Shown: piece by piece, positions 711 through 38,532 of the stretch
Numbering within the stretch: the stretch's first letter is position 1
How the letters are laid out: every line of letters starts with the position of its first letter
Virus record (IMG/VR): IMGVR_UViG_3300028841_000391
Span: 1 to 38,532 of that record
DNA from: a virus
Reading direction: 5' to 3' (one strand)
DNA: 38,532 nt
Program-made: the position numbers and the translations under genes
Notes under the pieces: model-generated
Database searches by the model: none
What the model was told of the DNA's origin: nothing
What the model saw: only the letters and a program-made list of their open reading frames with translations

Positions 711-1781
711 ATGTCTATCAAAGCCATGTCCCATGTGTGGGAAGTAACAAATCTGAACACGTACGAGAAATTTGTCCTGCTGGCTCTCGCCGATTACTGC
801 AACCACAACCTGGTGGCATGGCCGAGCGTGCAAACGTTGGCTGAGAAAGTCCGGATGTCTAAAAATGGCGTCCGCAACATTTTGGAGAGACTTGTTGCGA
901 TGGGCGCGCTGGAAGTCAAGCATCGAAAACAAAAAAATGGTCTCAATCGCTCCTCTTTGTACAGAATCGTTCTCTCTGCGTTGTCCACAATGCCACCAGA
1001 TATCGACGGAACCCCAGGTGAAATCGAAGACGATAGCGACGACGATCTTTTTGAAAGTGACACCAAAGATGGGGGTAGTGCATCCGGTGCACCACCCATC
1101 ACACAGGGGGTAGTGCATCCGGTGAGCAAGGTAGTGCACCCCGTGCACCCAGATCCGGTCATTGAACCGGGTATACAAATAACTCTACAGGATCAACCAA
1201 CGTTAGCTGGCCCCCCAACCAATGTGGGTACCGCTGCATTTTTTGAAAAAGAGAACGAAGGGAATCTGAACACGCAACCCCAAGCACAACAGGATCCCAA
1301 ACAAACAGAGTTCAAAAGACACAACCTATATCGCGCCCTGGAGGCGCTACAGTCAACGCTAGCGGGTCACGTGGACTTTGAGCAGGGCGAACACAATGGA
1401 GGCCAACCTGGGCAAAATTGCGCCCTATTGGATCCGTCCCTGGAAACGATGTTCAAGGAAAAGATTGCCAGGTACGCAAGAGGTCGCAAAAAAGGTCTCA
1501 ACAACATCCTGGACGACATGAAGCAGCTTGGGGAGCAAGTCAAAAAAACCCAGCCCAAGGCAATAACCTTTCGCACTCTTCTGTGCGCTGGAAGCTTTGA
1601 AAAGTGTCTAGAGGCCATCCCCAACAACAAACCCCAGCAACCCAAAACACCCAGGCCGCTAGCTCATGGGCTTTGGGAACCCGCACCAAGGCCTGTGCTG
1701 ACCCCAGAAGAGCACGCCGCAAATCTGGCAATTTTAAATGAGCTGAGAACGAAACTGCAAACAAGGGAATTTGCGATATAA
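711..1781 (+). CDS. Replication initiator-like protein with N-terminal winged-helix (HTH_36-type) domain
   Basis: ATG at 711 with AAAGGTG 7 nt upstream. N-terminus: MSIKAMSHVWEVTNLNTYEKFVLLALADYCNHNLVAWPSVQTLAEKVRMSKNGVRNILERLVAMGALEV, the pattern of phage replication/primosome winged-helix proteins. An acidic linker and a basic C-terminal half follow, and iteron-like repeats lie inside the gene. Confidence 0.65.
   Translation: MSIKAMSHVWEVTNLNTYEKFVLLALADYCNHNLVAWPSVQTLAEKVRMSKNGVRNILERLVAMGALEVKHRKQKNGLNRSSLYRIVLSALSTMPPDIDGTPGEIEDDSDDDLFESDTKDGGSASGAPPITQGVVHPVSKVVHPVHPDPVIEPGIQITLQDQPTLAGPPTNVGTAAFFEKENEGNLNTQPQAQQDPKQTEFKRHNLYRALEALQSTLAGHVDFEQGEHNGGQPGQNCALLDPSLETMFKEKIARYARGRKKGLNNILDDMKQLGEQVKKTQPKAITFRTLLCAGSFEKCLEAIPNNKPQQPKTPRPLAHGLWEPAPRPVLTPEEHAANLAILNELRTKLQTREFAI
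1071..1146 (+). repeat. Iteron-like direct repeats inside the replication gene (candidate ori)
   Basis: GGGGGTAGTGCATCCGGTG occurs at 1071-1089 and again exactly at 1106-1124. A third degenerate copy, GGTAGTGCACCCCGTG, is at 1130-1145. The region encodes the VVHPV repeats of the linker. Confidence 0.55.
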
Positions 1782-2422: not shown

Positions 2423-2507
2423 AATAAGTTTTTTTGGTAAACTTTATATTGACAGAATAGTATTGTGTGGTAAACTTATTATTAGAAACAGAAACGGAGA
2501 CAACACC
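2423..2507 (+). promoter_or_regulatory. Early promoter/operator/leader copy A
   Basis: TTGACA (2449-2454), 16-nt spacer, TG-G-TAAACT extended -10 (2468-2476). Half-sites: AATAAGTTT (2423-2431), AAACTTTAT (2439-2447), AAACTTATT (2472-2480). Leader AGAAACAGAAACGGAGACAACACC at 2484-2507, directly before the ATG. Confidence 0.7.
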
Positions 2508-2825
2508 ATGGACTTCACACAACAAGCTCAAGAAATTCTCGGCAACAAAGCAACGGGTGTAATTCGCCACTTTCCAGTCGGCAGCATCGGCCACAAAGCC
2601 ATTACCATCATTCTCAACCTTGCGGGCAAAAAAGAAACAGGTAAAAAAGAATGGACGAAAGCCATCGAAATATGTGAAATCGCTAAAAAAGAAGTTTGGG
2701 AAGCCGATGCTTCAGAAAAATATTGCAGCGCATTAAGCGCGGCTGTCTACATCGCAGAGGCAGCAATTGAGTATGAAGTGATGCTAGAGCGCGCAGCCAA
2801 AATGGCAAAATGGGCAAATTCGTAA
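2508..2825 (+). CDS. Hypothetical helical protein, short member of paralogue family A
   Basis: ATG at 2508 follows the conserved leader (GGAGA 8 nt upstream). MDFTQQAQEILGNKATGVIRHFPVGSIGHKAITIILNL...KKEW... aligns with the N-proximal block and conserved Trp of 3553, 4859 and 7929. Confidence 0.7.
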   Translation: MDFTQQAQEILGNKATGVIRHFPVGSIGHKAITIILNLAGKKETGKKEWTKAIEICEIAKKEVWEADASEKYCSALSAAVYIAEAAIEYEVMLERAAKMAKWANS

Positions 2826-2835
2826 GGAGATAGCG

Positions 2836-3168
2836 ATGAATAGTCAAACATACATAAGAACACTCAACACAATGAACAAACAGCAACCAACCAGCGAAGA
2901 GAAATATCAGCTGCTTTGGTTTGCCATGATGGCTACCCAAGACCTGCCGGTGCGTTTCATTGGTCAATACATCATGGGCGGGGTGTTAGAGATTCGTTTT
3001 GCTGCATACAAGGTTTTGTTGCAAATCTCACCAGAAGACCAATCAATCGAAATGGTTCTTTTTCAAGATGGTGAATTTGTTGCACACCTCGAAAGAATTG
3101 AGCGGTATGACCATTTCGACAAGCTGCGCGAAATTTTGAAAATGTATTGCTGTGAGGAAGCGGCATGA
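2836..3168 (+). CDS. Hypothetical protein, paralogue family B (B1)
   Basis: RBS AAGGAGA. KYQLLWFAMMATQDLPVRFIGQY aligns with HYRLLRSVLMVTEKMPVRKIAQF of 4120-4497. Confidence 0.7.
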   Translation: MNSQTYIRTLNTMNKQQPTSEEKYQLLWFAMMATQDLPVRFIGQYIMGGVLEIRFAAYKVLLQISPEDQSIEMVLFQDGEFVAHLERIERYDHFDKLREILKMYCCEEAA

Positions 3169-3533
3169 CCATTCCACCACTCACAAACGAGCAGACAAAA
3201 GAGCTGGTCCAAGAAGTTTTTGGTGCGGAATTGTACGACATGAGAATGTCGGGCTTCAGCGAACATGCATGCAAAGAGGCATGGGTGATGGCGATGAGAG
3301 CAATCAACCCTCGCCTCCTCATCAAGGGAACGAGCTACGGAGCGCCTGCTGACGCACATGAGATCTTTCCGATTGCAGGTGCCCTCTTCCGCTCGATGTT
3401 GATTGGGCTCAACCCGGCCGTAAAATCCGCCGGGGAAACCCTGACGGCACTGGGCAAGCGAGAGTTGGCGGTCAGAGCGTATCGGTCTGCTGGCCGCCTT
3501 TTGCAAAAACAAAAAACCTCAAAAGCAGCATAA
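3165..3533 (+). CDS. Hypothetical protein
   Basis: ATGA start/stop overlap with the upstream gene; RBS GAGGAAG; 122-aa track ORF. No motif recognised. Confidence 0.65.
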   Translation: MTIPPLTNEQTKELVQEVFGAELYDMRMSGFSEHACKEAWVMAMRAINPRLLIKGTSYGAPADAHEIFPIAGALFRSMLIGLNPAVKSAGETLTALGKRELAVRAYRSAGRLLQKQKTSKAA

Positions 3534-3552
3534 AAATAAAACGGGAGGATAC

Positions 3553-4119
3553 ATGGACACCGCAGCAAAAACAGCCCTGCAAATTGAAAAAGCATGCCTA
3601 CATAAACTAATAGAGGTTGTTCCTGCTTCACGCCAGCGAATGTTTCTCATTACCCTCTTGGAGGATCCGAGCTATGGCGTTCTAAACGCAGTGAAGGGAG
3701 ATTCTCAATATTACAAGGTCGCTTCAGTGGCGCTCGCCGTACTTAGACACCCACCCTTTGACATGGACGGCATGAACTGGGTCAATGGCTCTGCGCAGCG
3801 GTTGTTACGCACTGAATTGCTGCGCAGCGATTTTCAGCTTAGAGAGAAAACTATCTACAGCCATGCAATGTCAACAGTTGTGTGGGTGGCAAAATGGGTT
3901 GCCATGGAGTTTGCGATTGGGATAGTCTCAGAATCAAGCGGTGAATGTTTGATGAATCCACAGAGAGAAGCGATTGAAAACGCCGCGAAACACGCCGCCA
4001 TTGCGCTTAGTGGTGGCGAGTGGCCAATCGAAATGAAATTTCACTACCAATGGATGTTTGAGACTTTGACAGAAATTCTTAGAAGTCCACAAGGTATTTC
4101 AGAGAAAGTTGAGAATTAG
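3553..4119 (+). CDS. Hypothetical helical protein, paralogue family A (A1)
   Basis: RBS GGGAGGA. Carries the family blocks RQRMFLITLLEDPSYGVL and C-terminal HYQWMFETLTEIL. Confidence 0.75.
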   Translation: MDTAAKTALQIEKACLHKLIEVVPASRQRMFLITLLEDPSYGVLNAVKGDSQYYKVASVALAVLRHPPFDMDGMNWVNGSAQRLLRTELLRSDFQLREKTIYSHAMSTVVWVAKWVAMEFAIGIVSESSGECLMNPQREAIENAAKHAAIALSGGEWPIEMKFHYQWMFETLTEILRSPQGISEKVEN

Positions 4120-4497
4120 ATGAGTAACGCCTACTACAAAACAGGAATCACCCAGCCAATCCTACGGAAAAAAAGACGCAGCAGCACCAAGATTCACTAC
4201 AGGCTGCTTCGTTCTGTTCTCATGGTTACTGAAAAGATGCCAGTGCGCAAAATAGCGCAATTTCTTCATGAAGAAGACAAATCTGTGGTGATTGTAGATT
4301 TTGGCACCTATGAAGCACGCTTGGCGTGCTCACTGGAGTCAAACTTGGGCACATGGGTCACCATCACGCCACTTGGTCAAAGCAAGGACGCCTTTGTGCA
4401 CCGCATGGGGTACGACCCCCTTGATGGAGACATGACCTTTGCACAGCGGCTGGAGTTGTACAATTTTCTCGCGCACTTCGCACGTTATTACGCATAG
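4120..4497 (+). CDS. Hypothetical protein, paralogue family B (B2)
   Basis: Starts directly after the upstream TAG. Carries the family B block HYRLLRSVLMVTEKMPVRKIAQF. Confidence 0.7.
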   Translation: MSNAYYKTGITQPILRKKRRSSTKIHYRLLRSVLMVTEKMPVRKIAQFLHEEDKSVVIVDFGTYEARLACSLESNLGTWVTITPLGQSKDAFVHRMGYDPLDGDMTFAQRLELYNFLAHFARYYA

Positions 4498-4505
4498 GAG
4501 GACAC

Positions 4506-4850
4506 ATGAGACATTACAGGTTGGTTCAGTTTGTTTGTATGTGTCTTACGGGCGTTCATGAAAGAAAAGAGAAGGACGAAGGCGAAACAAAAGAATATGT
4601 CCTTATGTACGTGCCCAGGGGAAATGAAGTCAATGACAAGAGCGCAGCAATATACATTTCAGAAGACATGACAATGGTCAGTGAAAAGTCTTTGAAAATA
4701 TTTGAGAAATATGGTCTGCTCTGGATTGCGCTTATTCATAACTCTCGGCCTATACAAATTAGGGGAATTGGCAGAGAAGGCTCTGAGCTATATAAGTACT
4801 TATGTTTGTACATAGATAACGATTGGCAACGCATTGGCGAGGAAAACTAA
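4506..4850 (+). CDS. Hypothetical protein, paralogue family B (B3, tandem duplicate of B2)
   Basis: RBS AGGAGGA. The N-terminus MRHYRLVQFVCMCLTGVHERK aligns with B2. A second B-like block, YGLLWIALIHNSRPIQIRGIG, lies near the C-terminus. Confidence 0.65.
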   Translation: MRHYRLVQFVCMCLTGVHERKEKDEGETKEYVLMYVPRGNEVNDKSAAIYISEDMTMVSEKSLKIFEKYGLLWIALIHNSRPIQIRGIGREGSELYKYLCLYIDNDWQRIGEEN

Positions 4851-4858
4851 GGAGAATC

Positions 4859-5332
4859 ATGCAACCCGCGAAAACGAAAAAGTCAATCAAAAGGCGGCGC
4901 AGAGACATGGAAACACTTTTGCAGAACGCATCGAGAAAACACATCAGTCGGGTGTTCCTGCTGCTCCTGGATGATCAGATGTATGGCATCACCCACTTCA
5001 TCAACGGCAGCTCGCCAATACTGTCGCACATCATCCTGTTGCTTGAAAACCAAAAAACTTGTCAGAAGGAGTGGATGCATGCCAGAAATGCGGTCATGCG
5101 CGAAGTCGCCGACATGTCTATTATTGCGGCATCGGTTCTCTGGCTGGTTGCAAACGCCATGATGTACCCTGACGTCACCGACACGCTGCCCCTGGTTCGA
5201 CAAGAGGCCAATCGAGCCATTTCCATTGCATCGACGTTTTGCAACAGCAGGCAAGAATGCCTGTCCTATCGAAGGTGGATAAACGATGCAGTGGTTGAAA
5301 TCACAACAGAAGCAACAGGAAAAACAGAATGA
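4859..5332 (+). CDS. Hypothetical helical protein, paralogue family A (A2)
   Basis: ATG at 4859 with AAGGAGAA upstream (the track ORF begins earlier, at 4823). Carries ISRVFLLLLDDQMYGIT, KEW and C-terminal SYRRWINDAVVEI. Confidence 0.72.
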   Translation: MQPAKTKKSIKRRRRDMETLLQNASRKHISRVFLLLLDDQMYGITHFINGSSPILSHIILLLENQKTCQKEWMHARNAVMREVADMSIIAASVLWLVANAMMYPDVTDTLPLVRQEANRAISIASTFCNSRQECLSYRRWINDAVVEITTEATGKTE

Positions 5333-6141
5333 ACACAACATGTTTTGACTTGAAAAAAATCAACACCTTAACCAAGTACCCAAGCATACCGACCTACCAC
5401 CAGATGGCTGACAGAGGGATGCTCGCAGATGTGCCTCTAGAGATTCCAGAAGGCCCTCTTTATCTGTCTGAGAAGATAGATGGCACCAATGCCAGAATCA
5501 TTGAGTTTGTCAATCCCGATGAAAGAGACTGGCCGAAAGAGCGCGCTTGGCTCATTGGGTCTCGTGAAGAGCTTCTACATGCCAAGGGCGACCTCATTCC
5601 TAGCAATGATCAAGGAATTGTGGAGGCCTTGGAAGCAACGGCTGAATCACTCTCGGTCCTACTAAAAACTCACGCTCCAGGAATAGTGGTTTACTACGGA
5701 GAGGTATATGGAAGTAAAATAGGCGCGGCGTGCAAAAATTACACCCAAAAAGGTTCTTCAGGGTTTAGGTTGTTTGACGTTGCCGCGTACTCGTATGAAG
5801 TGTTCGCAAAGATCTTGGAGATGCCTATCGAGAAAATTGCTTCATGGCGGGAACAAAACCTGCAACCATGGCTGCCTACTAAATTCATAAGCACAGCTCC
5901 AGGGTGCCCCCCCATCATGCGGGTCCCCACATGGCAAATAGAGGCCCCCGATTCTACCATGCCAAAAACCCCACAAGCCACCTTAAAATGGCTGGCGCAG
6001 TTTCCAACGGACACGAAATGCGCGTTGGACGGCCAGCCAGGAATGGCAGAAGGATACGTTCTCAGAAATGAAAACAGGTCCTTCATCGCAAAGCTTCGCT
6101 TTGAAGACTACACACGTACCTTGACAAAGCGGTTGGCATAA
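5329..6141 (+). CDS. ATP-dependent RNA ligase, Rnl2-like adenylyltransferase domain
   Basis: Covalent nucleotidyltransferase motifs occur in order: I SEKIDGTN (Lys codon at 5473-5475), Ia IGSRE, III VYYGEVYG, IIIa FRLFDV, IV AEGYVLR, V IAKLRFEDY. ATGA overlap with the upstream gene. Confidence 0.75.
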   Translation: MNTTCFDLKKINTLTKYPSIPTYHQMADRGMLADVPLEIPEGPLYLSEKIDGTNARIIEFVNPDERDWPKERAWLIGSREELLHAKGDLIPSNDQGIVEALEATAESLSVLLKTHAPGIVVYYGEVYGSKIGAACKNYTQKGSSGFRLFDVAAYSYEVFAKILEMPIEKIASWREQNLQPWLPTKFISTAPGCPPIMRVPTWQIEAPDSTMPKTPQATLKWLAQFPTDTKCALDGQPGMAEGYVLRNENRSFIAKLRFEDYTRTLTKRLA

Positions 6142-6142
6142 A

Positions 6143-6643
6143 ATGGAAACAAAGCAACAAGAAACAATAGATGGCCTAACAGTGTCAGACATTTCAATTC
6201 GCCACGATAAAGTCAAGGAACTACAAGAAGCCTTCAACAAAGCAGGCATCAGAGTCACGCATGGAGAAGCGTTTGTTTTGTTGCGTATTCAGCTGATCAA
6301 CCGGGTGGATATTTCTCTGCATGAACGCGTGCCAAATTTGGATGGGGATTTGAATTTGCGCATCGATGTGGTCAAACCCCAATGGGCGAAACAAATGGTG
6401 ATGGAAATAATACAAGCAGGCCAAGAAATGGGAAAAGCGCCCCCACGGGATCCACCTGCCCGAAATGGCGAATCCGCCTTGCTTAAGTTGGCGGAAATTG
6501 GACGTTTGTACCCATCGGATCCAGACATGCCAACCGATGGGGCCGCAAATGTAGACCACTATCTGTATGGTGCGCCAAAACAGGAAAGTACAGTCACATG
6601 CCTAACAACAACACTGAGGAATGGAGGAAAGAATGGAGAATGA
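6143..6643 (+). CDS. Hypothetical protein
   Basis: 166-aa track ORF, 1 nt after the ligase stop. It overlaps the next gene by 11 nt. No motif recognised. Confidence 0.6.
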   Translation: METKQQETIDGLTVSDISIRHDKVKELQEAFNKAGIRVTHGEAFVLLRIQLINRVDISLHERVPNLDGDLNLRIDVVKPQWAKQMVMEIIQAGQEMGKAPPRDPPARNGESALLKLAEIGRLYPSDPDMPTDGAANVDHYLYGAPKQESTVTCLTTTLRNGGKNGE

Positions 6644-7400
6644 AGCCAGCAGCGAAAAGGGTGAAAAATGGTTGAAAAATTATTTGAAAGAAAGAATTTC
6701 CGAAGGTCCCTGGAGCGCCGAACCAGACAGGCAGGAATGGAAGTACAAAGGGTTCCCGTGCCTGATTGTGCGCAATCACATGGGTGTGCTTTGCGGATAC
6801 GTTGGGGTTCCGAGTAACCACCCGTATTATCAAATGAATTATGAAGAGATTCCCTTAGAGGTGCATGGAGGACTTACGTACTCACAGCATTGTCGCGAGA
6901 ACATCTGTCACAAGCCGGCAGAGGGCGAGCCAGATGATGTGTGGTGGCTTGGTTTTGATTGTGGGCACTACGGAGACCTCATCCCCTGCTATAAGGACCT
7001 TAACCCGGACTTCGAATATCGTGACATGAACTACGTAAAGGCAGAGGTGGAAGGGCTTGCGGACCAGTTGCACGAGGCAATGAACCCATCAGAATCTCAA
7101 GAGGAAGCCGTTGATTGCAGCACCTCGCAAAGCACATCAAACGACAGCATCATTCGTAAAAGAATGGAGACTGCAATCAGCCTCCATAATGTCCTCTCTG
7201 AGAGAGGTGTTCTAGTTTCGCGGATGGATATTGATACATTGCTCGACTTGGCCATAAAAAACAAACTTCACATCATACTCCACAAACGGGAAGACCTACG
7301 AAGCACCATAGATTATGTTGATTCAACAGGGCATCTTTGCCACTTTGTCAACGAACCTGGGTGGGTGCACATTCCTAAAGATGCAAAGGAGCATTCATGA
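6633..7400 (+). CDS. Hypothetical protein, long member of the CGYVG family (His/Cys/Asp-rich core)
   Basis: ATG at 6633 behind GGAGGAAAGA. Core sequence: VRNHMGVLCGYVGVP...EVHGGLTYSQHC...DDVWWLGFDCGHYGDLIP. C-terminal helical extension. Confidence 0.7.
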   Translation: MENEASSEKGEKWLKNYLKERISEGPWSAEPDRQEWKYKGFPCLIVRNHMGVLCGYVGVPSNHPYYQMNYEEIPLEVHGGLTYSQHCRENICHKPAEGEPDDVWWLGFDCGHYGDLIPCYKDLNPDFEYRDMNYVKAEVEGLADQLHEAMNPSESQEEAVDCSTSQSTSNDSIIRKRMETAISLHNVLSERGVLVSRMDIDTLLDLAIKNKLHIILHKREDLRSTIDYVDSTGHLCHFVNEPGWVHIPKDAKEHS

Positions 7401-7885
7401 GTGAACCATGGACTGAATGGTACGAACGCGCCGAAAAAATTAAAGACAGTGAAGAACTTATGAATTTAGCCAATGATATGATGTGGAGCTTGTTTTTCAG
7501 TGCCAAGTCAAGCAATGAATTGAGCAGCTATGACCACATTTATGATTCATATGCTGAAGGGGCAGCTGCTTTGTTGCTGGCGGCCGGAAATCTCATGTCT
7601 GACAAATTAGGCCTAACAGGGTTCCAAGCAAGTTTTGCATTTTGGAGATTTGCACAACGGTGGCTGCCCATCGATGGACCTGCGGGACTGCTGAAACTGG
7701 AAGATATGCTGTATCCTCAATACAAATACAAGTTTACTGCCATCTCGCTAGATGACTGGAACTGGTTGCAAGCGGAAGCACAAAAGAGACTGAATGAGCG
7801 CGAAGGTATGCATGCGGACGTTAGAGCACACATGACCAGCATCGTTGAGGGTCATGTGCCATTTGGGTTCAAAGTTTTGCATTGA
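7397..7885 (+). CDS. Hypothetical protein
   Basis: ATGA overlap with the upstream gene; RBS AAGGAG; 162 aa. Its stop codon lies inside the TTGACA of promoter copy B. Confidence 0.7.
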   Translation: MSEPWTEWYERAEKIKDSEELMNLANDMMWSLFFSAKSSNELSSYDHIYDSYAEGAAALLLAAGNLMSDKLGLTGFQASFAFWRFAQRWLPIDGPAGLLKLEDMLYPQYKYKFTAISLDDWNWLQAEAQKRLNEREGMHADVRAHMTSIVEGHVPFGFKVLH

Positions 7886-7914
7886 CAACAATAGTATTAT
7901 GTGGCAAACTTATT
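7881..7914 (+). promoter_or_regulatory. Early promoter/operator copy B (34 bp identical to 10415-10448)
   Basis: ATTGACAACAATAGTATTATGTGGCAAACTTATT. TTGACA at 7882-7887, 17-nt spacer, TG-G-CAAACT at 7902-7910, half-site AAACTTATT at 7906-7914. GGAGGAG and an ATG at 7929 follow. Confidence 0.7.
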
Positions 7915-7928
7915 CATGTGGAGGAGCA

Positions 7929-8456
7929 ATGTTGAAAACCAGCAGGAAGGCGGATTTTCTTATCACGGTGTTGCGAGAAACTGACCTTACAGAAGAATGC
8001 AAGAGACGTTTCTTCATCGCAATCCTTAGCGATGAAACCCACGGTGTGCTTAGGCTCACTCAACCGGGCTCTGTGCAGCATGATGCCGTATTCAACGTCA
8101 TTGCTCTTCTCAAAGACAACTGCAACGACCCAAAGGTTTGGCGGGATGCAGAGGCTTCTGCATCAGCAGCAGCAGGGGTAGCAATATCGGTAGCTACAAG
8201 TGCCGCAGAAATGGCAGCAGGGGCAGCGGCACGGGCAGCTGCAAGTGCTGCAGCAGGGTCTTTAGGGGCGGCAGCATGGGCGGCCTCAGGGCACGTAGCA
8301 GCAACAGAGACAGTAGCAGCAGCAGAAGAGGCATGGGTAGCTTCAGGGCACGCAGCAGCAGAAGAGGTATGGATGGCAGCAGCAGAATACGCAGCAGAAG
8401 TACACTACTCATGGATGACTGTCACCTTCGAGCAATTGCTAAGGGAGACAAAATGA
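7929..8456 (+). CDS. Hypothetical Ala/Trp-rich helical protein, paralogue family A (A3)
   Basis: ATG at 7929 behind GGAGGAG. Carries KRRFFIAILSDETHGVL, KVW and C-terminal HYSWMTVTFEQLL. The central Ala-rich tract has an internal duplication: AWAASGHVAA..EE / AWVASGHAAAEE. Confidence 0.75.
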   Translation: MLKTSRKADFLITVLRETDLTEECKRRFFIAILSDETHGVLRLTQPGSVQHDAVFNVIALLKDNCNDPKVWRDAEASASAAAGVAISVATSAAEMAAGAAARAAASAAAGSLGAAAWAASGHVAATETVAAAEEAWVASGHAAAEEVWMAAAEYAAEVHYSWMTVTFEQLLRETK

Positions 8457-8950
8457 CCAGCTTCGAAGAAAGCAAAACAGTCGACCTTTTTCAGTTGGTG
8501 CGCAAGTTCATGGAAGAACTTCCGTTAGACATAGAAAAAGTAGAGATAGAACGCAAAGTAAATGAGAATGCTGCAACCATAACCCTACGCGTGCAGACAC
8601 CTGATAGCGATGTGGCTGCGCCCAGCCCTGCAAAGCCACTATGTGCATCTGCTTTGACAAGCATCAATGTGCAGAAGAACACGCCTCTTGGGAAAGTCTT
8701 CTGCTTAGCAACACCTAAAGTTCTGAGGCAGCTTCGTGTTTGGCCCAAATGCGGATCGTCGCTGATTACGGAACCAGACGCTTGGCCCAAAATGCTTAAG
8801 CCTTCTCCATTGAAAACTCTCGTTGTTTCGTTAACGAAAGATTTGGTCAGCCATGCAAGAACTGAAACACAAGAAGAAAAAGAAGAATTCTTTGAGCTGT
8901 TTAAAAAAATGAGAGAAAAAGTGAGAGAAATGAAAAAGGAGGAACAATGA
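8453..8950 (+). CDS. Hypothetical protein
   Basis: ATGA overlap at 8453. MTSFEESKTVDLFQLVRKF... with a Lys/Glu-rich C-terminus. The part of track ORF 8138-8950 upstream of 8453 is an alternative frame of the Ala tract. Confidence 0.6.
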   Translation: MTSFEESKTVDLFQLVRKFMEELPLDIEKVEIERKVNENAATITLRVQTPDSDVAAPSPAKPLCASALTSINVQKNTPLGKVFCLATPKVLRQLRVWPKCGSSLITEPDAWPKMLKPSPLKTLVVSLTKDLVSHARTETQEEKEEFFELFKKMREKVREMKKEEQ

Positions 8951-9153
8951 AAAAGTTTGCTACCCTACTAGCGGCCGTTGTCGTTGTCAAATTAAAACTG
9001 ATTGGTATGTCAAATTACTTGCCCATTGGTGAGGAGGCCAAGCAGGTACTGAAGGACACGCAAGGGCTTTGGGCCTGCGACCAAGGCACCACACCGGTTC
9101 TGGTGTTGCAGGATGGCGGTCTGTTTGTGGAATGCAAGAAGAAACAACCTTAG
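8947..9153 (+). CDS. Small protein with signal-peptide-like N-terminus (MKKFATLLAAV...)
   Basis: RBS AGGAGGA; ATGA overlap with the upstream gene. The N-terminus is nearly identical to that of 9604-9786. Confidence 0.6.
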   Translation: MKKFATLLAAVVVVKLKLIGMSNYLPIGEEAKQVLKDTQGLWACDQGTTPVLVLQDGGLFVECKKKQP

Positions 9154-9161
9154 GAAAGAGC

Positions 9162-9590
9162 ATGGAGACTCAAATCAAAATAAGCAACGCAATCAATGTA
9201 TCTGTTGCACGAAATCAAACTGAAGGCTTTGGGCCATTTTCATGCAAAGTGACATGTCTCATAAGTACTGAAGAAGCGGAAGCAATTTTTAAGCAAATAC
9301 CAAAAGAAGGATGCGGAGAGTTGTTTTTAAAGGTTTCCATACTTTCTATAGAATCTGGAGATTTTACGGGTCAAAAAATGTTCTTTCAAGCGTGGATTGC
9401 AGGGTTAAGGTCGGTCGGCAATGATGCAGAAATCACGTTCATAGGATATCCGAATTGGGTCAATGCGCAAAAGGCTCGCTCTGAGGCACTCGAAGACAGC
9501 ATCAGATTTTCCATGCAAACAGATAGGGAATCGTTTGAAAAAATCGAAATGGACATGAAAAGAAATTGGTTCTTACAAAATCCTACATAA
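9162..9590 (+). CDS. Hypothetical protein
   Basis: ATG at 9162 (METQIKISNAINV...), 142 aa. The upstream extension of the track ORF overlaps the preceding gene. Confidence 0.6.
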   Translation: METQIKISNAINVSVARNQTEGFGPFSCKVTCLISTEEAEAIFKQIPKEGCGELFLKVSILSIESGDFTGQKMFFQAWIAGLRSVGNDAEITFIGYPNWVNAQKARSEALEDSIRFSMQTDRESFEKIEMDMKRNWFLQNPT

Positions 9591-9603
9591 AGAAGGAGGC
9601 AGC

Positions 9604-9786
9604 ATGAAAAAGTTTGTTACCCTGTTGGCGGCAGTGACTATCATGGCAATCAGTTCTTTTGTTCAAGAACAGTACACCTCCCTATCGAATTTGGCAGGCT
9701 ACTGCCTATCTGGAGGCCGCCTCTTATTGTTAATAATGATGTTAATAAAAAAAACGACAAGCGTTCAAAAATACTCGCGTAAATAA
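9604..9786 (+). CDS. Small membrane/secreted protein (MKKFVTLLAAV...)
   Basis: RBS GAAGGAGG. Has a hydrophobic N-terminus and a second hydrophobic stretch, GRLLLLIMMLI. Confidence 0.5.
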   Translation: MKKFVTLLAAVTIMAISSFVQEQYTSLSNLAGYCLSGGRLLLLIMMLIKKTTSVQKYSRK

Positions 9787-10414: not shown

Positions 10415-10474
10415 ATTGACAACAATAGTATTATGTGGCAAACTTATTATAGAAACAGAGACGGAGACAACACC
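10415..10474 (+). promoter_or_regulatory. Early promoter/operator/leader copy C
   Basis: TTGACA at 10416-10421, 17-nt spacer, TG-G-CAAACT at 10436-10444, AAACTTATT at 10440-10448, leader AGAAACAGAGACGGAGACAACACC at 10451-10474. A divergent TTGTCA-N16-TATTTT on the minus strand shares the -35 core. Confidence 0.7.
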
Positions 10475-10666
10475 ATGACAAAGACAAACATCCAACACAA
10501 CCTCCAAAACGCAGCCCTGAACACCATGAGCGCCGAAGAGATGGAATTGCTGAACATCGCAACTGCCGAAATGTACTCCAACAGCGCTTTTGACCACAGC
10601 TGGGTGGATGCATATACCTGGGTGGGCGAATACGTCTTGATCAATGGCCAACTAGTCCACGCATAA
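10475..10666 (+). CDS. Small acidic protein, first gene of the recombination unit
   Basis: ATG at 10475 directly after the conserved leader. 63 aa: MTKTNIQHNLQNAALNTMSAEEMELLNIATAEMY... Confidence 0.6.
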   Translation: MTKTNIQHNLQNAALNTMSAEEMELLNIATAEMYSNSAFDHSWVDAYTWVGEYVLINGQLVHA

Positions 10667-10686: not shown

Positions 10687-11313
10687 ATGGACATGCAAAA
10701 GAAAAGCCTGGCGGAAAAAATGATATCTGTGATGAAAGAATGCAGCTACATCGAAAAGGATGGCACCAACTCTTTCCACAAGTACAAATACGTCTCTTCA
10801 AATGCCGTTCTACAGAAAGTGAACGACGCCCTTGTAAACCACCGCGTGGCTTCTTTCACACGCACCAGAATCATCTCTGCTGAGGTGGCTACCACCAACA
10901 AAGGCGCGCAAGAGAAGTTTGTGACAGCCGAAGCCATCATCACACTGGTGAACGCAGACGCTTCAGAAGACAAAATGGAGATTTCCGCGATTGGCAGCGG
11001 GCAGGACGCCGGAGACAAAGCCGTAGCCAAGGCCCAGACAATGGCCATAAAATATGCCTGGACCATGACATTGAACATCTCAACGGGTGACGACCCAGAG
11101 AAAGACGAACAAACAGACCGCTCGACAAGCGCCGCGCAGAGCTTCGCTGATGAGTACGAACAAGTCTATACCAAGGAACAATACCAAAATCTTGTTGACA
11201 AAACCAAACGATTCATCTCCTCCTTTTCCGCAGCAGAGGCTACATTGCTTCGAAACGCCGCGCAGCGGGCCCAGGCCAGAATTGCGCCGCCCAAAGAGAA
11301 AGGAATGATGTAG
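10687..11313 (+). CDS. erf: ERF-family single-strand annealing protein
   Basis: SFHKYKYVSSNAVLQKVNDAL ... GSGQDAGDKAVAKAQTMAIKYAWTMTLNISTGDDPEKDE matches the ERF core pattern (KYKY...; GDKA-x-KA-x-T-x-A-x-KY...; DDPE.D). GAGGAG/AAGGAGA lies upstream. ATG at 10693 is an alternative start. Confidence 0.78.
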   Translation: MDMQKKSLAEKMISVMKECSYIEKDGTNSFHKYKYVSSNAVLQKVNDALVNHRVASFTRTRIISAEVATTNKGAQEKFVTAEAIITLVNADASEDKMEISAIGSGQDAGDKAVAKAQTMAIKYAWTMTLNISTGDDPEKDEQTDRSTSAAQSFADEYEQVYTKEQYQNLVDKTKRFISSFSAAEATLLRNAAQRAQARIAPPKEKGMM

Positions 11314-11867: not shown

Positions 11868-12512
11868 ATGACGTATCGCCTTTGTTACATCGATTCGCAT
11901 GCCGGCCCCATCAAGCGGGCGTATTTCACAAACCTGGAGCCATTTACCGAGCAGACCGGCGATGATTGGGAGGATGCTCAGTACTGGTTAAATGCCAGCC
12001 CCCCGTATGACAGCGGCGACAACCTGAAAATCGTCGTATTTGAATCACAACTCCTTGACCCACACGATTACCCCAAAAATCTTTCTATGTCCGTCGACCA
12101 GATAAACGACAAGCAAGTGCCTTGGCTCATCAACGGAGACTCTCAAGAGCCAGACAAACAAATTTACGCGGGTTGTCCGCTTGAGAAATTCAAATGTGAC
12201 ATCTGGGCGGCAGGTGGAACAATCTTTGAACCAAAAAGTTCCCCGGCAGGATATTCGACGAAAGAAACCGTTGAGCTTCATATTGCTCAACACACTGGTT
12301 TTGTGTTGAGCGATGACCCAGATGAGCCCAACGTGTTTTTTGGTCATCCAGATAGCACAAAATCGTTGCTGTGTTGGTATTTGTATACACTGCCACACAG
12401 GCTGCCCACTGTTTTTGCAAAAATGAGGTCGTTTGTTGAAGAAAATAAGGAAAAACTGCGCGAAGAAATGGGAAAACATCCCGGGTTGATTAAATTCAAG
12501 GTGAAAGCATGA
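11868..12512 (+). CDS. Hypothetical protein
   Basis: ATG at 11868 (MTYRLCYIDSHAGPIKRAYFTNLEPFTEQTGDDWEDAQYWLNASPPYD...), with GGGAGA 10 nt upstream. The upstream part of the track ORF overlaps the previous gene. Confidence 0.6.
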   Translation: MTYRLCYIDSHAGPIKRAYFTNLEPFTEQTGDDWEDAQYWLNASPPYDSGDNLKIVVFESQLLDPHDYPKNLSMSVDQINDKQVPWLINGDSQEPDKQIYAGCPLEKFKCDIWAAGGTIFEPKSSPAGYSTKETVELHIAQHTGFVLSDDPDEPNVFFGHPDSTKSLLCWYLYTLPHRLPTVFAKMRSFVEENKEKLREEMGKHPGLIKFKVKA

Positions 12513-12847
12513 ATGGCACCAAGGTACTCTCTACAGTTCTTGAGCGCAAGCAAGAGGCAATGAACAAGACGGAAAAAGAGTATCATTTCCACTTGCTCGC
12601 TCTTCAACTTGCTGGAAAGATTGTTCGGTATGACTTTGAGCCAGAGCGCTTGAGGCTTGCCAACAACACCTTTTACAGCCCTGACTTTCGGGTGATTTTT
12701 CCCGATGGTAGTGTTGAGTTTCACGAAGTAAAAGGCTACTGGCGTGACGACGCACGGGTGAAAATCAAAGTAGCTGCCGAGCTACATCCTTATCGATTTC
12801 GCGCTGTGCAAAAAGCGAAAACCGGCTGGCACTACGAAGATTTTTAA
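12509..12847 (+). CDS. DUF1064-like PD-(D/E)xK nuclease (Holliday-junction-resolvase-like)
   Basis: KTEKEYHFHLLALQLAGKIVRYDFEPERLRL...YSPDFRVIFPDGSVEFHEVKGYWRDDARVKIKVAAELHP carries the D...E-x-K core and the overall DUF1064 pattern. ATGA overlap with the upstream gene. Confidence 0.7.
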   Translation: MNGTKVLSTVLERKQEAMNKTEKEYHFHLLALQLAGKIVRYDFEPERLRLANNTFYSPDFRVIFPDGSVEFHEVKGYWRDDARVKIKVAAELHPYRFRAVQKAKTGWHYEDF

Positions 12848-38341: not shown

Positions 38342-38532
38342 TCACACTTCTATAACTCCTTCAAGAAGTTCAGACAGCGTACAACCAAGGGCATTACAAA
38401 TCTTTAGAAGCAGATCCAAAGATGGCTTGCCGAATCGACCGATTTCAATGTTGGAGATATGCGCGCGGCTAATGTTACATTTCTCGGCAAGTTCTTGCGG
38501 CGACAAGTCTAACTGACACCGATATTTGGCTA
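38342..38532 (-). CDS. XRE/Cro-CI family HTH regulator, C-terminal part (5' end lies across the junction at 1-202)
   Basis: The frame continues ...LLKICNALGCTLSELLEGVIEV, with the TGA stop at 38344-38342. The joined length is 252 nt, giving 83 aa. It is a single-domain protein with no peptidase or dimerisation extension. Confidence 0.88.
   Translation of the reverse strand, partial: AKYRCQLDLSPQELAEKCNISRAHISNIEIGRFGKPSLDLLLKICNALGCTLSELLEGVIEV
38392..38532. repeat. Direct terminal repeat, copy 2 (identical to 1-141)
   Basis: Same 141 nt as the left end. This is either a circular-assembly overlap or a genuine terminal redundancy. Confidence 0.97.

Follow-up and report, generated by a model that had tools for sequence, protein, structure and literature searches.

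T4 Dmd and the all-helical lambda Gam are small early phage inhibitors that act by binding a host protein and are encoded as single copies. Small, fast-evolving early phage genes have so far been the source of most anti-defense proteins, yet most of these genes are orphans. Among immunity proteins, Imm5 is a helical family associated with DYW-clade deaminase and CdiAC RNase toxins (PMC3239186, PMC3482391); it has been proposed as a scaffold that binds structurally distinct, unrelated toxins (PMC3239186) and is frequent in polyimmunity proteins (PMC3482391). SsdAI (7jtu chain B), which confers immunity to SsdA, a DYW-clade ssDNA deaminase toxin, consists of helices only (PMC7901873), and from the clade of its toxin we infer that it is an Imm5 member. 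The locus analyzed here is carried by IMG/VR virus record IMGVR_UViG_3300028841_000391, the whole of which (38,532 nt) is referred to as the window. An earlier note, made from its letters alone, had described the early genes at 2508-5332 as iterated small-gene cassettes of two paralogous families, A (A1 to A4, the last lying further downstream) and B (B1 to B3), and had suggested a host-takeover or anti-defense role. The present analysis addresses the reality of these families, the anatomy and relatives of family A, and the roles that its members might play.

Paralogy of the family A genes

All eight open reading frames (ORFs) that had been named are present at the coordinates claimed for them, and their gene calls are reproduced in an independent Logan assembly. 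The proposed order, A1-B1-x-A2-B2-B3-A3-ligase, is correct, the ligase being a protein of the RNA-ligase family; A4 is located 2.6 kb beyond this cluster (Table 1). Pairwise BLAST similarity within A is weak (E 0.03-0.4), and A1 and A2 have no detectable pairwise similarity. In Smith-Waterman shuffle tests, five of the six A pairs gave p values of 2e-4 to 3e-2; when 14 early proteins were compared in all 91 pairs, these five were grouped near the head of the ranking. When hidden Markov models (HMMs) were built with one member left out, the omitted member was always the best non-self match among 369 six-frame segments (E 5e-5 to 5e-3). When 1.84 billion representative proteins were searched exhaustively with HMMER, the profile of the four members returned 35 non-self proteins (E 8e-22 to 1e-3), most of which align along nearly the whole profile. 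A second, external-only profile, composed of 34 outside relatives and zero window sequences, recovered all four A copies, the next window segment scoring E 1.2. In profile-profile comparison with hhalign the four members reached probabilities of 40-99.6%, and seven control proteins all remained at or below 1.3%. The external-only comparison carries some circularity, since the outsiders had been recruited by a profile of A1 to A4; these outsiders nonetheless make up a coherent natural family in their own right. With leave-one-out HMMs, outside relatives, external-only profile and hhalign all in agreement, the paralogy postulated for family A is borne out, and A1 to A4 are diverged paralogs of one previously undescribed family in phages and prophages.

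Other routes to relatives were less productive. Among 5.8 billion proteins searched by a word index, the A alignment returned self matches only, tblastn searches of phage records with A4, the outside relative P0018 and copy c of the related contig L008 returned nothing, and no description of family A was found in the literature.

Table 1. Positions of the early-arm features in the window (aa, amino acids).
Feature	Positions	Strand	Description	Evidence
HTH_36 replication initiator	711..1781	+		library match
Promoter copy 1	2447..2480	+	TTGACA, 16 nt, TGnTAAACT	directly before A1
A1	2508..2825	+	105 aa; short, N-terminally truncated	external-only profile E 9e-8; hhalign 63%
B1	2836..3168	+	110 aa; small, acidic	B1-B2 shuffle p 7e-6; phmmer E 4e-4
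x	3165..3533	+	122 aa; neither A nor B	homologs in L004 (E 4e-25) and L015 (E 3e-26)
A2	3553..4119	+	188 aa; middle not Ala-rich	external-only profile E 5e-11; hhalign 81%
B2	4120..4497	+	125 aa; basic	paralog of B1; AlphaFold2 (AF2) model alpha-beta4-alpha
B3	4506..4850	+	114 aa; possible third B member	leave-one-out E 0.25
A3	4859..5332	+	157 aa; basic	external-only profile E 6e-8; leave-one-out E 4e-4; hhalign 40%
RNA-ligase-family protein	5329..6141	+	270 aa; KIDGTN nucleotidyl-transferase motif	PF09414 E 4e-10; phrog_548 E 6e-11
Promoter copy 2	7881..7914	+	100% identical over 34 nt to the 10415 copy	directly before A4
A4	7929..8456	+	175 aa; canonical	external-only profile E 8e-38; hhalign 99.6%
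36-nt repeats	8169..8387	+	degenerate, coding for the A4 Ala/Trp tract	five copies, 64-100% identity
Erf annealase	10687..11313	+		library match
Holliday-junction resolvase	12509..12847	+		library match

Anatomy of family A

The N-proximal block of the family roughly follows the consensus (R/W)(R/Q)F(F/A)(I/L)x(I/L)LxDxxxGV(L/I)R(L/F)TxPGS and comes in two groups, exemplified by RRFFLAILSDExHGVLRLTxPGSxQHxAISNVIALLNDNC in the A4-like group and by DTSDVWRQFAIWLLVDPxxGVIRFTKPGS in the second. The block is found in A2, A3 and A4, and its start is truncated in A1. In the alignment of 38 sequences L33 is invariant, and G39, L60 and W71 are at least 90% conserved, the last being the Trp that had been singled out downstream of the block. 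The C-terminal block reported for three members is likewise confirmed, as HYQWMFETLTEIL in A2, HYSWMTVTFEQLL in A4 and SYRRWINDAVVEI in A3, with a degenerate version, EYEVMLERAAKM, in A1; moreover, it reaches across the whole family as a helix of the form HYx(W/R)M(A)xxLxxLL that is conserved in the relatives. Long forms carry, in addition, an extra N-terminal domain (AYHNDP...GKGCAVGC...GIP...FEGLP...AKxWP) for which there is no Pfam match.

Between the N-block and the C-helix the family is hypervariable in both length and sequence, and its middle is usually Ala-rich with Trp or Tyr. The aromatic residues of the Ala-rich tracts are spaced by 3-4, 6-7 and 11-12 residues, which points to helical periodicity. 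Ala content is 26% in A4, 17% in A1, which has a partial tract, and 9-11% in A2 and A3, which have an ordinary helical middle; across the relatives it ranges from 6.6 to 33%, so that the tract is typical of the family and not universal. The earlier note had seen the Ala/Trp tract of A4 as an expansion with an internal duplication. The internal repeats are real, in the form of degenerate 36-nt units (Table 1), of which Tandem Repeats Finder detects only a 12-nt x 2.2 array, but the tract is the family norm and not an expansion specific to A4. Because A4 is 39-51% identical to its nearest relatives, which are proteins of other uncultured phages, it is the canonical member; its Ala/Trp tract is likely to be ancestral, and A1, A2 and A3 are the divergent copies.

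In another frame, a 270-aa ORF (8138-8950) overlaps A4 in its Ala-rich part and continues into the following gene, g8453, for which gene callers choose a start at 8453, preceded by a GGAG site. This overlap seems to be a side effect of the GCN-rich repeats and not a gene.

Relatives, copy number and gene neighborhood

Wherever the flanking DNA suffices for assignment, family A genes are found in phage or prophage-like contexts. An 18-kb contig with a layout like that of the window (L008), with tail proteins 37-54% identical and an Erf protein 57% identical to those of the window, encodes four long-form A copies sharing 22-36% identity, two of them in tandem. Three tandem copies occur in a 38.5-kb phage (L017), the last of them just upstream of Erf; at least three copies flank Erf in a phage contig (L019), where one overlaps the Erf start; and a bacterial contig of 370 kb has two copies in a region that resembles a prophage (L018). 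In a further phage contig (L012) one protein, P0044, holds two complete A domains, and its cluster relative P0018 is also a two-domain fusion. Single copies are found at four phage loci (L004, L011, L013 and L015) and in an integrase-bearing island of a metagenome-assembled genome (MAG; L005). The survey of related phages that had been suggested as a check thus yields a recurrent pattern of two to four diverged copies or two-domain fusions, and the iteration of A is a trait of the family as such and no peculiarity of the window. A candidate for another fusion was rejected: P0012 (L004 9317-10408, 363 aa) is of A type in its C-terminal half, and an A3-like string, ISYLLFLLTDTVYGAG, occurs within its first 215 residues, but the profile of the family fails to recognize this N-terminal part as a second A domain.

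The neighbors of the A genes fall into a few recurrent types. In the window, the stop codon of A3 overlaps the start codon of the RNA-ligase gene (ATGA); in L011 (4137-4586) and L006, a HAD_PNKP gene (PF25109) abuts the A gene; and in L015 and L016 the A gene is directly preceded by a TROVE/Ro60 gene (509-2137 in L015). Three lineages therefore have three different RNA-repair-type neighbors of A genes, namely an RNA ligase, a PNKP-type phosphatase and Ro60. In other lineages the neighbor is Erf, which follows the A array directly in L017 and also adjoins A genes in L019; in L008 and in the window Erf is encoded in the same arm as the A genes. Another recurrent gene in the vicinity of A is a homolog of the window gene g6621 (PHROG 2164), seen in L011, L017 and L018.

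Family B and the cassette model

The proposal of a three-member family B stands in part. B1 and B2, which are 30% identical across 56 aa, are paralogs according to both the shuffle test and phmmer (Table 1), and both contain the shared block (K/H)Y(Q/R)LL......T...PVR.I.Q. The case for B3 is weaker: its N-terminal motif, in the alignment given by the earlier note, is not significant (p 0.05), its leave-one-out score is poor, and its best match to B1, preferred by MAFFT, involves residues 67-90 and is out of register (p 0.002). B3 has, in fact, two different B-like motifs, one (HYRLVQFVCMCLTGV) spanning residues 3-17 and the other (EKYGLLWIALIHNSRPIQIRGIG) residues 67-90, which could reflect internal duplication, fusion or chance. 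Relatives of B were found neither in the word-indexed search of 5.8 billion proteins (self matches only), nor in GenBank phages by tblastn with B2, nor in any related locus. The AF2 model of B2 has a predicted local distance difference test (pLDDT) score of 59, and Foldseek gave no meaningful fold match for it. The most fitting description of B1 and B2 is that of two lineage-specific, paired small early proteins of predicted alpha+beta structure, the membership of B3 being doubtful. The intervening gene x, by contrast with B, has homologs at two related loci and is a conserved early gene.

The notion of a conserved A/B cassette fails, since no relative of B was found in the loci and databases searched and A genes occur everywhere else without B. 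Duplication of an A-B unit as a block was also considered and rejected: B1 and B2 are the closest B pair, whereas their neighbors A1 and A2 are the least similar A pair, and the relatives lack B.

Promoters and expression signals

A strong sigma-70-type promoter, present in four copies (at 2447, 7881, 10415 and 37442), drives the early genes that point rightward. As the earlier note had observed, two A genes, A1 and A4, are the first genes behind a copy, and this position supports the placement of the A genes in a putative early, promoter-proximal operon. The 5' leader of A1 up to its ATG (2483-2510) is 96% identical to that of a 63-aa ORF at 10475-10666 (leader 10450-10477); with promoter and leader alike, these two first genes have their transcription and translation signals in common. 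Genes are tightly packed, every ORF having either a GGAG-type ribosome-binding site or translational coupling to its neighbor, and the start codon of B2 abuts the stop codon of A2.

Candidate roles of family A

Structure prediction provides a lead to function. The AF2 model of A2, derived from a four-sequence alignment, is all-alpha, with 8 predicted helices and a mean pLDDT of 60.8, and is best at residues 30-110. Its top Foldseek match in BFVD is A0A6J5RNF9 from an uncultured phage, named as an Imm-5-like domain-containing protein (prob 0.99, template modeling (TM) score 0.50, E 0.15), and its top match in the PDB is 7jtu_B, that is, SsdAI (prob 0.94, TM 0.46, E 0.19). The earlier suspicion that the Ala/Trp repeats recall helical immunity-like proteins fits these top matches, and the agreement of two fold libraries on a predicted structure is a useful lead. 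Given these E-values, the weakness of the model and the failure of the sequence test, family A has not been filed under Imm5.

The reading favored here over the others, tentatively and although it falls short of being probable, is that the A proteins, helical and made early, bind and neutralize variable host or competitor effectors, with the paralogs covering different target variants. The proteins would be made immediately after infection as soluble, all-helical binders in which the conserved N-block and C-helix serve as scaffold. The fast-evolving helical middle would contact and neutralize effectors, for example abortive-infection or toxin-type nucleases or deaminases, and each paralog might cover a different target variant, in the manner of polyimmunity loci. 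The RNA-repair neighbors of A genes in three lineages hint that some of the targets may damage RNA. An elaborated form of this proposal, which must be considered quite unlikely, casts family A as phage "poly-inhibitors", in which a helical clamp formed by N-block and C-helix would present a repeat-built Ala/aromatic surface, remodeled through repeat gain, repeat loss and gene duplication, and in which a repertoire of two to four copies or fusions would track host effectors. Together with the RNA-repair neighbors, these proteins would make up a two-layer counter-defense, where A possibly blocks an RNA-damaging nuclease and the RNA ligase, PNKP or Ro60 would mend the RNA.

A number of results weigh against a neutralizing role. 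No significant Pfam model, Imm5 included, was obtained for any of the 38 family members at an E limit of 10, no A match was found among PDB sequences, and PADLOC produced only two isolated matches (E ~0.01) among the 38 members and none for B1 to B3 or x. NCBIfam likewise contains no significant family for A, in keeping with the earlier statement that A could not be placed in any named family. The PADLOC, Pfam and NCBIfam scans thus lend no support to the putative anti-defense role. The A2 model is of low confidence, as its pLDDT indicates, and the other four models stand at about 40; the Foldseek E-values of both top matches are only 0.15-0.19. Across the loci examined, no A gene has a toxin-domain gene for a neighbor. 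The other assemblies of this phage all match the window with 100% identity, and hence they give no population signal of diversifying selection. Finally, in most contexts the A genes lie among replication and recombination genes, and a role in DNA metabolism would fit this neighborhood, with its Erf genes, equally well.

The last point leads to the main alternative, namely that the A proteins are accessory replication or recombination factors, either partners or regulators of Erf or inhibitors of RecBCD/AddAB like lambda Gam or P22 Abc. A genes are always encoded in an early arm between the HTH_36 replication initiator and Erf or a Holliday-junction resolvase, they come close to Erf or overlap its start in L017 and L019 and share its arm in L008 and the window, and the A proteins are, by model, all-helical, as is Gam. 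However, it would be unusual for a core DNA-metabolism factor to be present two to four times in a genome, in copies that are only 20-35% identical and have a middle of low complexity and high variability; in L011, L013, L015 and Xanthomonas phages the A-type genes lie away from any Erf gene; and there is no match to Gam, Abc or recombination families in Pfam or PHROGs. This alternative is regarded as unlikely, if still worth keeping in view.

It is decidedly improbable that the A proteins are true immunity or lysogenic-conversion proteins, directed against toxins of other bacteria or phages (type VI secretion system (T6SS) effectors, contact-dependent inhibition (CDI) toxins, bacteriocins, superinfecting phages) and not against host defenses. 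The Imm5-like Foldseek leads for the A2 model, the occurrence of A in the prophage-like region of a bacterial contig (L018, two copies) and in the integrase-bearing MAG island (L005), and the resemblance of A arrays to polyimmunity loci (PMC3482391) all speak for it, but A genes reside in promoter-proximal early lytic operons and not at the sites typical of morons, A has no known cognate toxin, and the sequence-level test for Imm5 membership failed. That the resemblances are merely compositional or due to chance, so that neither family exists, is very hard to credit: the weak pairwise BLAST scores within A, including the lack of any between A1 and A2, and the marginal similarity of B3 to B1 and B2 in two conflicting registers would agree with it, but the profile-based evidence refutes chance for A (leave-one-out HMMs, 35 outside relatives, external-only profile, hhalign), the shuffle test refutes it for B1-B2, and chance similarity is excluded for A1 to A4 and for B1/B2.

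Genome context and other duplicated early genes

The window represents an uncultured tailed phage in full. At its two ends (1-141 and 38392-38532) it has an exact direct terminal repeat of 141 nt, from which it follows that the genome is complete, at ~38.4 kb (~38,391 unique bases), and circular or terminally redundant. The early arm is encoded on the plus strand and the late genes on the minus strand, and no tRNA genes were found in the window. Megablast identified no close DNA relative of the region among 50,697 GenBank phage records, and the large terminase is only ~34% identical to known terminases. Three other assemblies contain stretches 100% identical to the window, and those that span the cassettes give the same gene calls.

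Duplication in the early arm is not limited to the genes discussed above. A second paralog pair, at 1927-2400 and 6621-7400 (g6621), has a shuffle p of 3e-5, PHROG 2164 matches with E-values of 1.5e-7 and 3e-38, respectively, and the common motif GxxCGYVG...HGG...FDC.H. The N-terminal part of g6143 (6143-6643) resembles the C-terminal part of g6621 (residues 160-233), with 28% identity over 79 aa and a shuffle p of 5e-4, which may represent a domain duplication between neighboring genes. The ORFs at 8947-9153 and 9604-9786 share a ribosome-binding site and a hydrophobic, signal-peptide-like N-terminus (MKKF(A/V)TLLAAV...), and the DNA at 8930-8978 is 80% identical to that at 9587-9635 over 49 nt, which makes this one more duplication among the small early genes; no PHROG matches either ORF.

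Significance

Four orphan ORFs have thus been turned into a defined family with a sequence signature, with ~35 representative relatives in phages, prophage-like regions and metagenomic contigs and with distant kin in tractable Xanthomonas phages. Arrays of diverged A copies with a hypervariable, repeat-built core are reproducible across these relatives and constitute a new and specific observation. If the family is a repertoire of toxin or defense inhibitors, it would add a new scaffold to the anti-defense catalogue, would be a useful marker of anti-defense islands, and could tie phage counter-defense to the immunity proteins of interbacterial toxins. Should its role lie in replication or recombination instead, the family would even then count as a novel accessory of Erf-type modules, and a widespread one.

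Comparison with known systems

Family A is uncharacterized: neither Pfam nor NCBIfam includes it, and its link to a PHROG, one that lacks annotation, is only loose. That group of phage proteins, PHROG 3416, is the only library family with recurrent A matches, and these fall in the same profile region (~90-220): A1 (E 8.5e-4), A4 (5.9e-4), P0018 (2e-8), P0037 (3.5e-6) and P0011 (1.6e-3). In contrast, many relatives, as well as A2 and A3, have no match to it at E ≤0.1, and A is at best a distant sister or undetected extension of PHROG 3416.

With Imm5 and Imm-5-like proteins, family A shares a size of ~150-200 aa and, according to the model, an all-helical fold. Multi-copy arrays and fused double domains are seen in A as they are in polyimmunity loci and proteins (PMC3482391), and homogeneous multi-copy A arrays exist in the related loci. 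The two differ in that A has no Pfam or PDB sequence match and no neighboring toxin gene, and the query model behind the likeness is of low confidence.

Diversifying small early phage proteins, probably inhibitors, are a known general kind. The likeness of A to T4 Dmd and lambda Gam would be one of functional analogy only, as small early binders, and A differs from both in being multi-copy.

Counterparts in culture are genes of Xanthomonas phages, namely phiXaf18_37, K1pha_60 of KPhi1 and relatives in MYK3, NEB7 and XapPhi1-6, which are matched by the long-form relative P0037 (tblastn E 2e-10 to 4e-11). What is matched is the additional N-terminal domain that long forms possess and A1 to A4 lack, and the A-type N-block is barely recognizable in these phage proteins. 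Like the long forms, however, they have an N-terminal AxxNDP...GC(A/S)VGC...FEGLP domain followed by Ala/Ser/Trp-rich repeats, and they are specified by an early gene with its own annotated promoter. In Xanthomonas virus phiXaf18 (L014, MN461279.1), phiXaf18_37 (3992-4846) is a hypothetical early protein of 284 aa in which the long-form N-terminal domain precedes repeats of the SAARWAARSAESAAES type, and since this phage is in culture, phiXaf18_37 is an experimentally accessible distant relative of the family.

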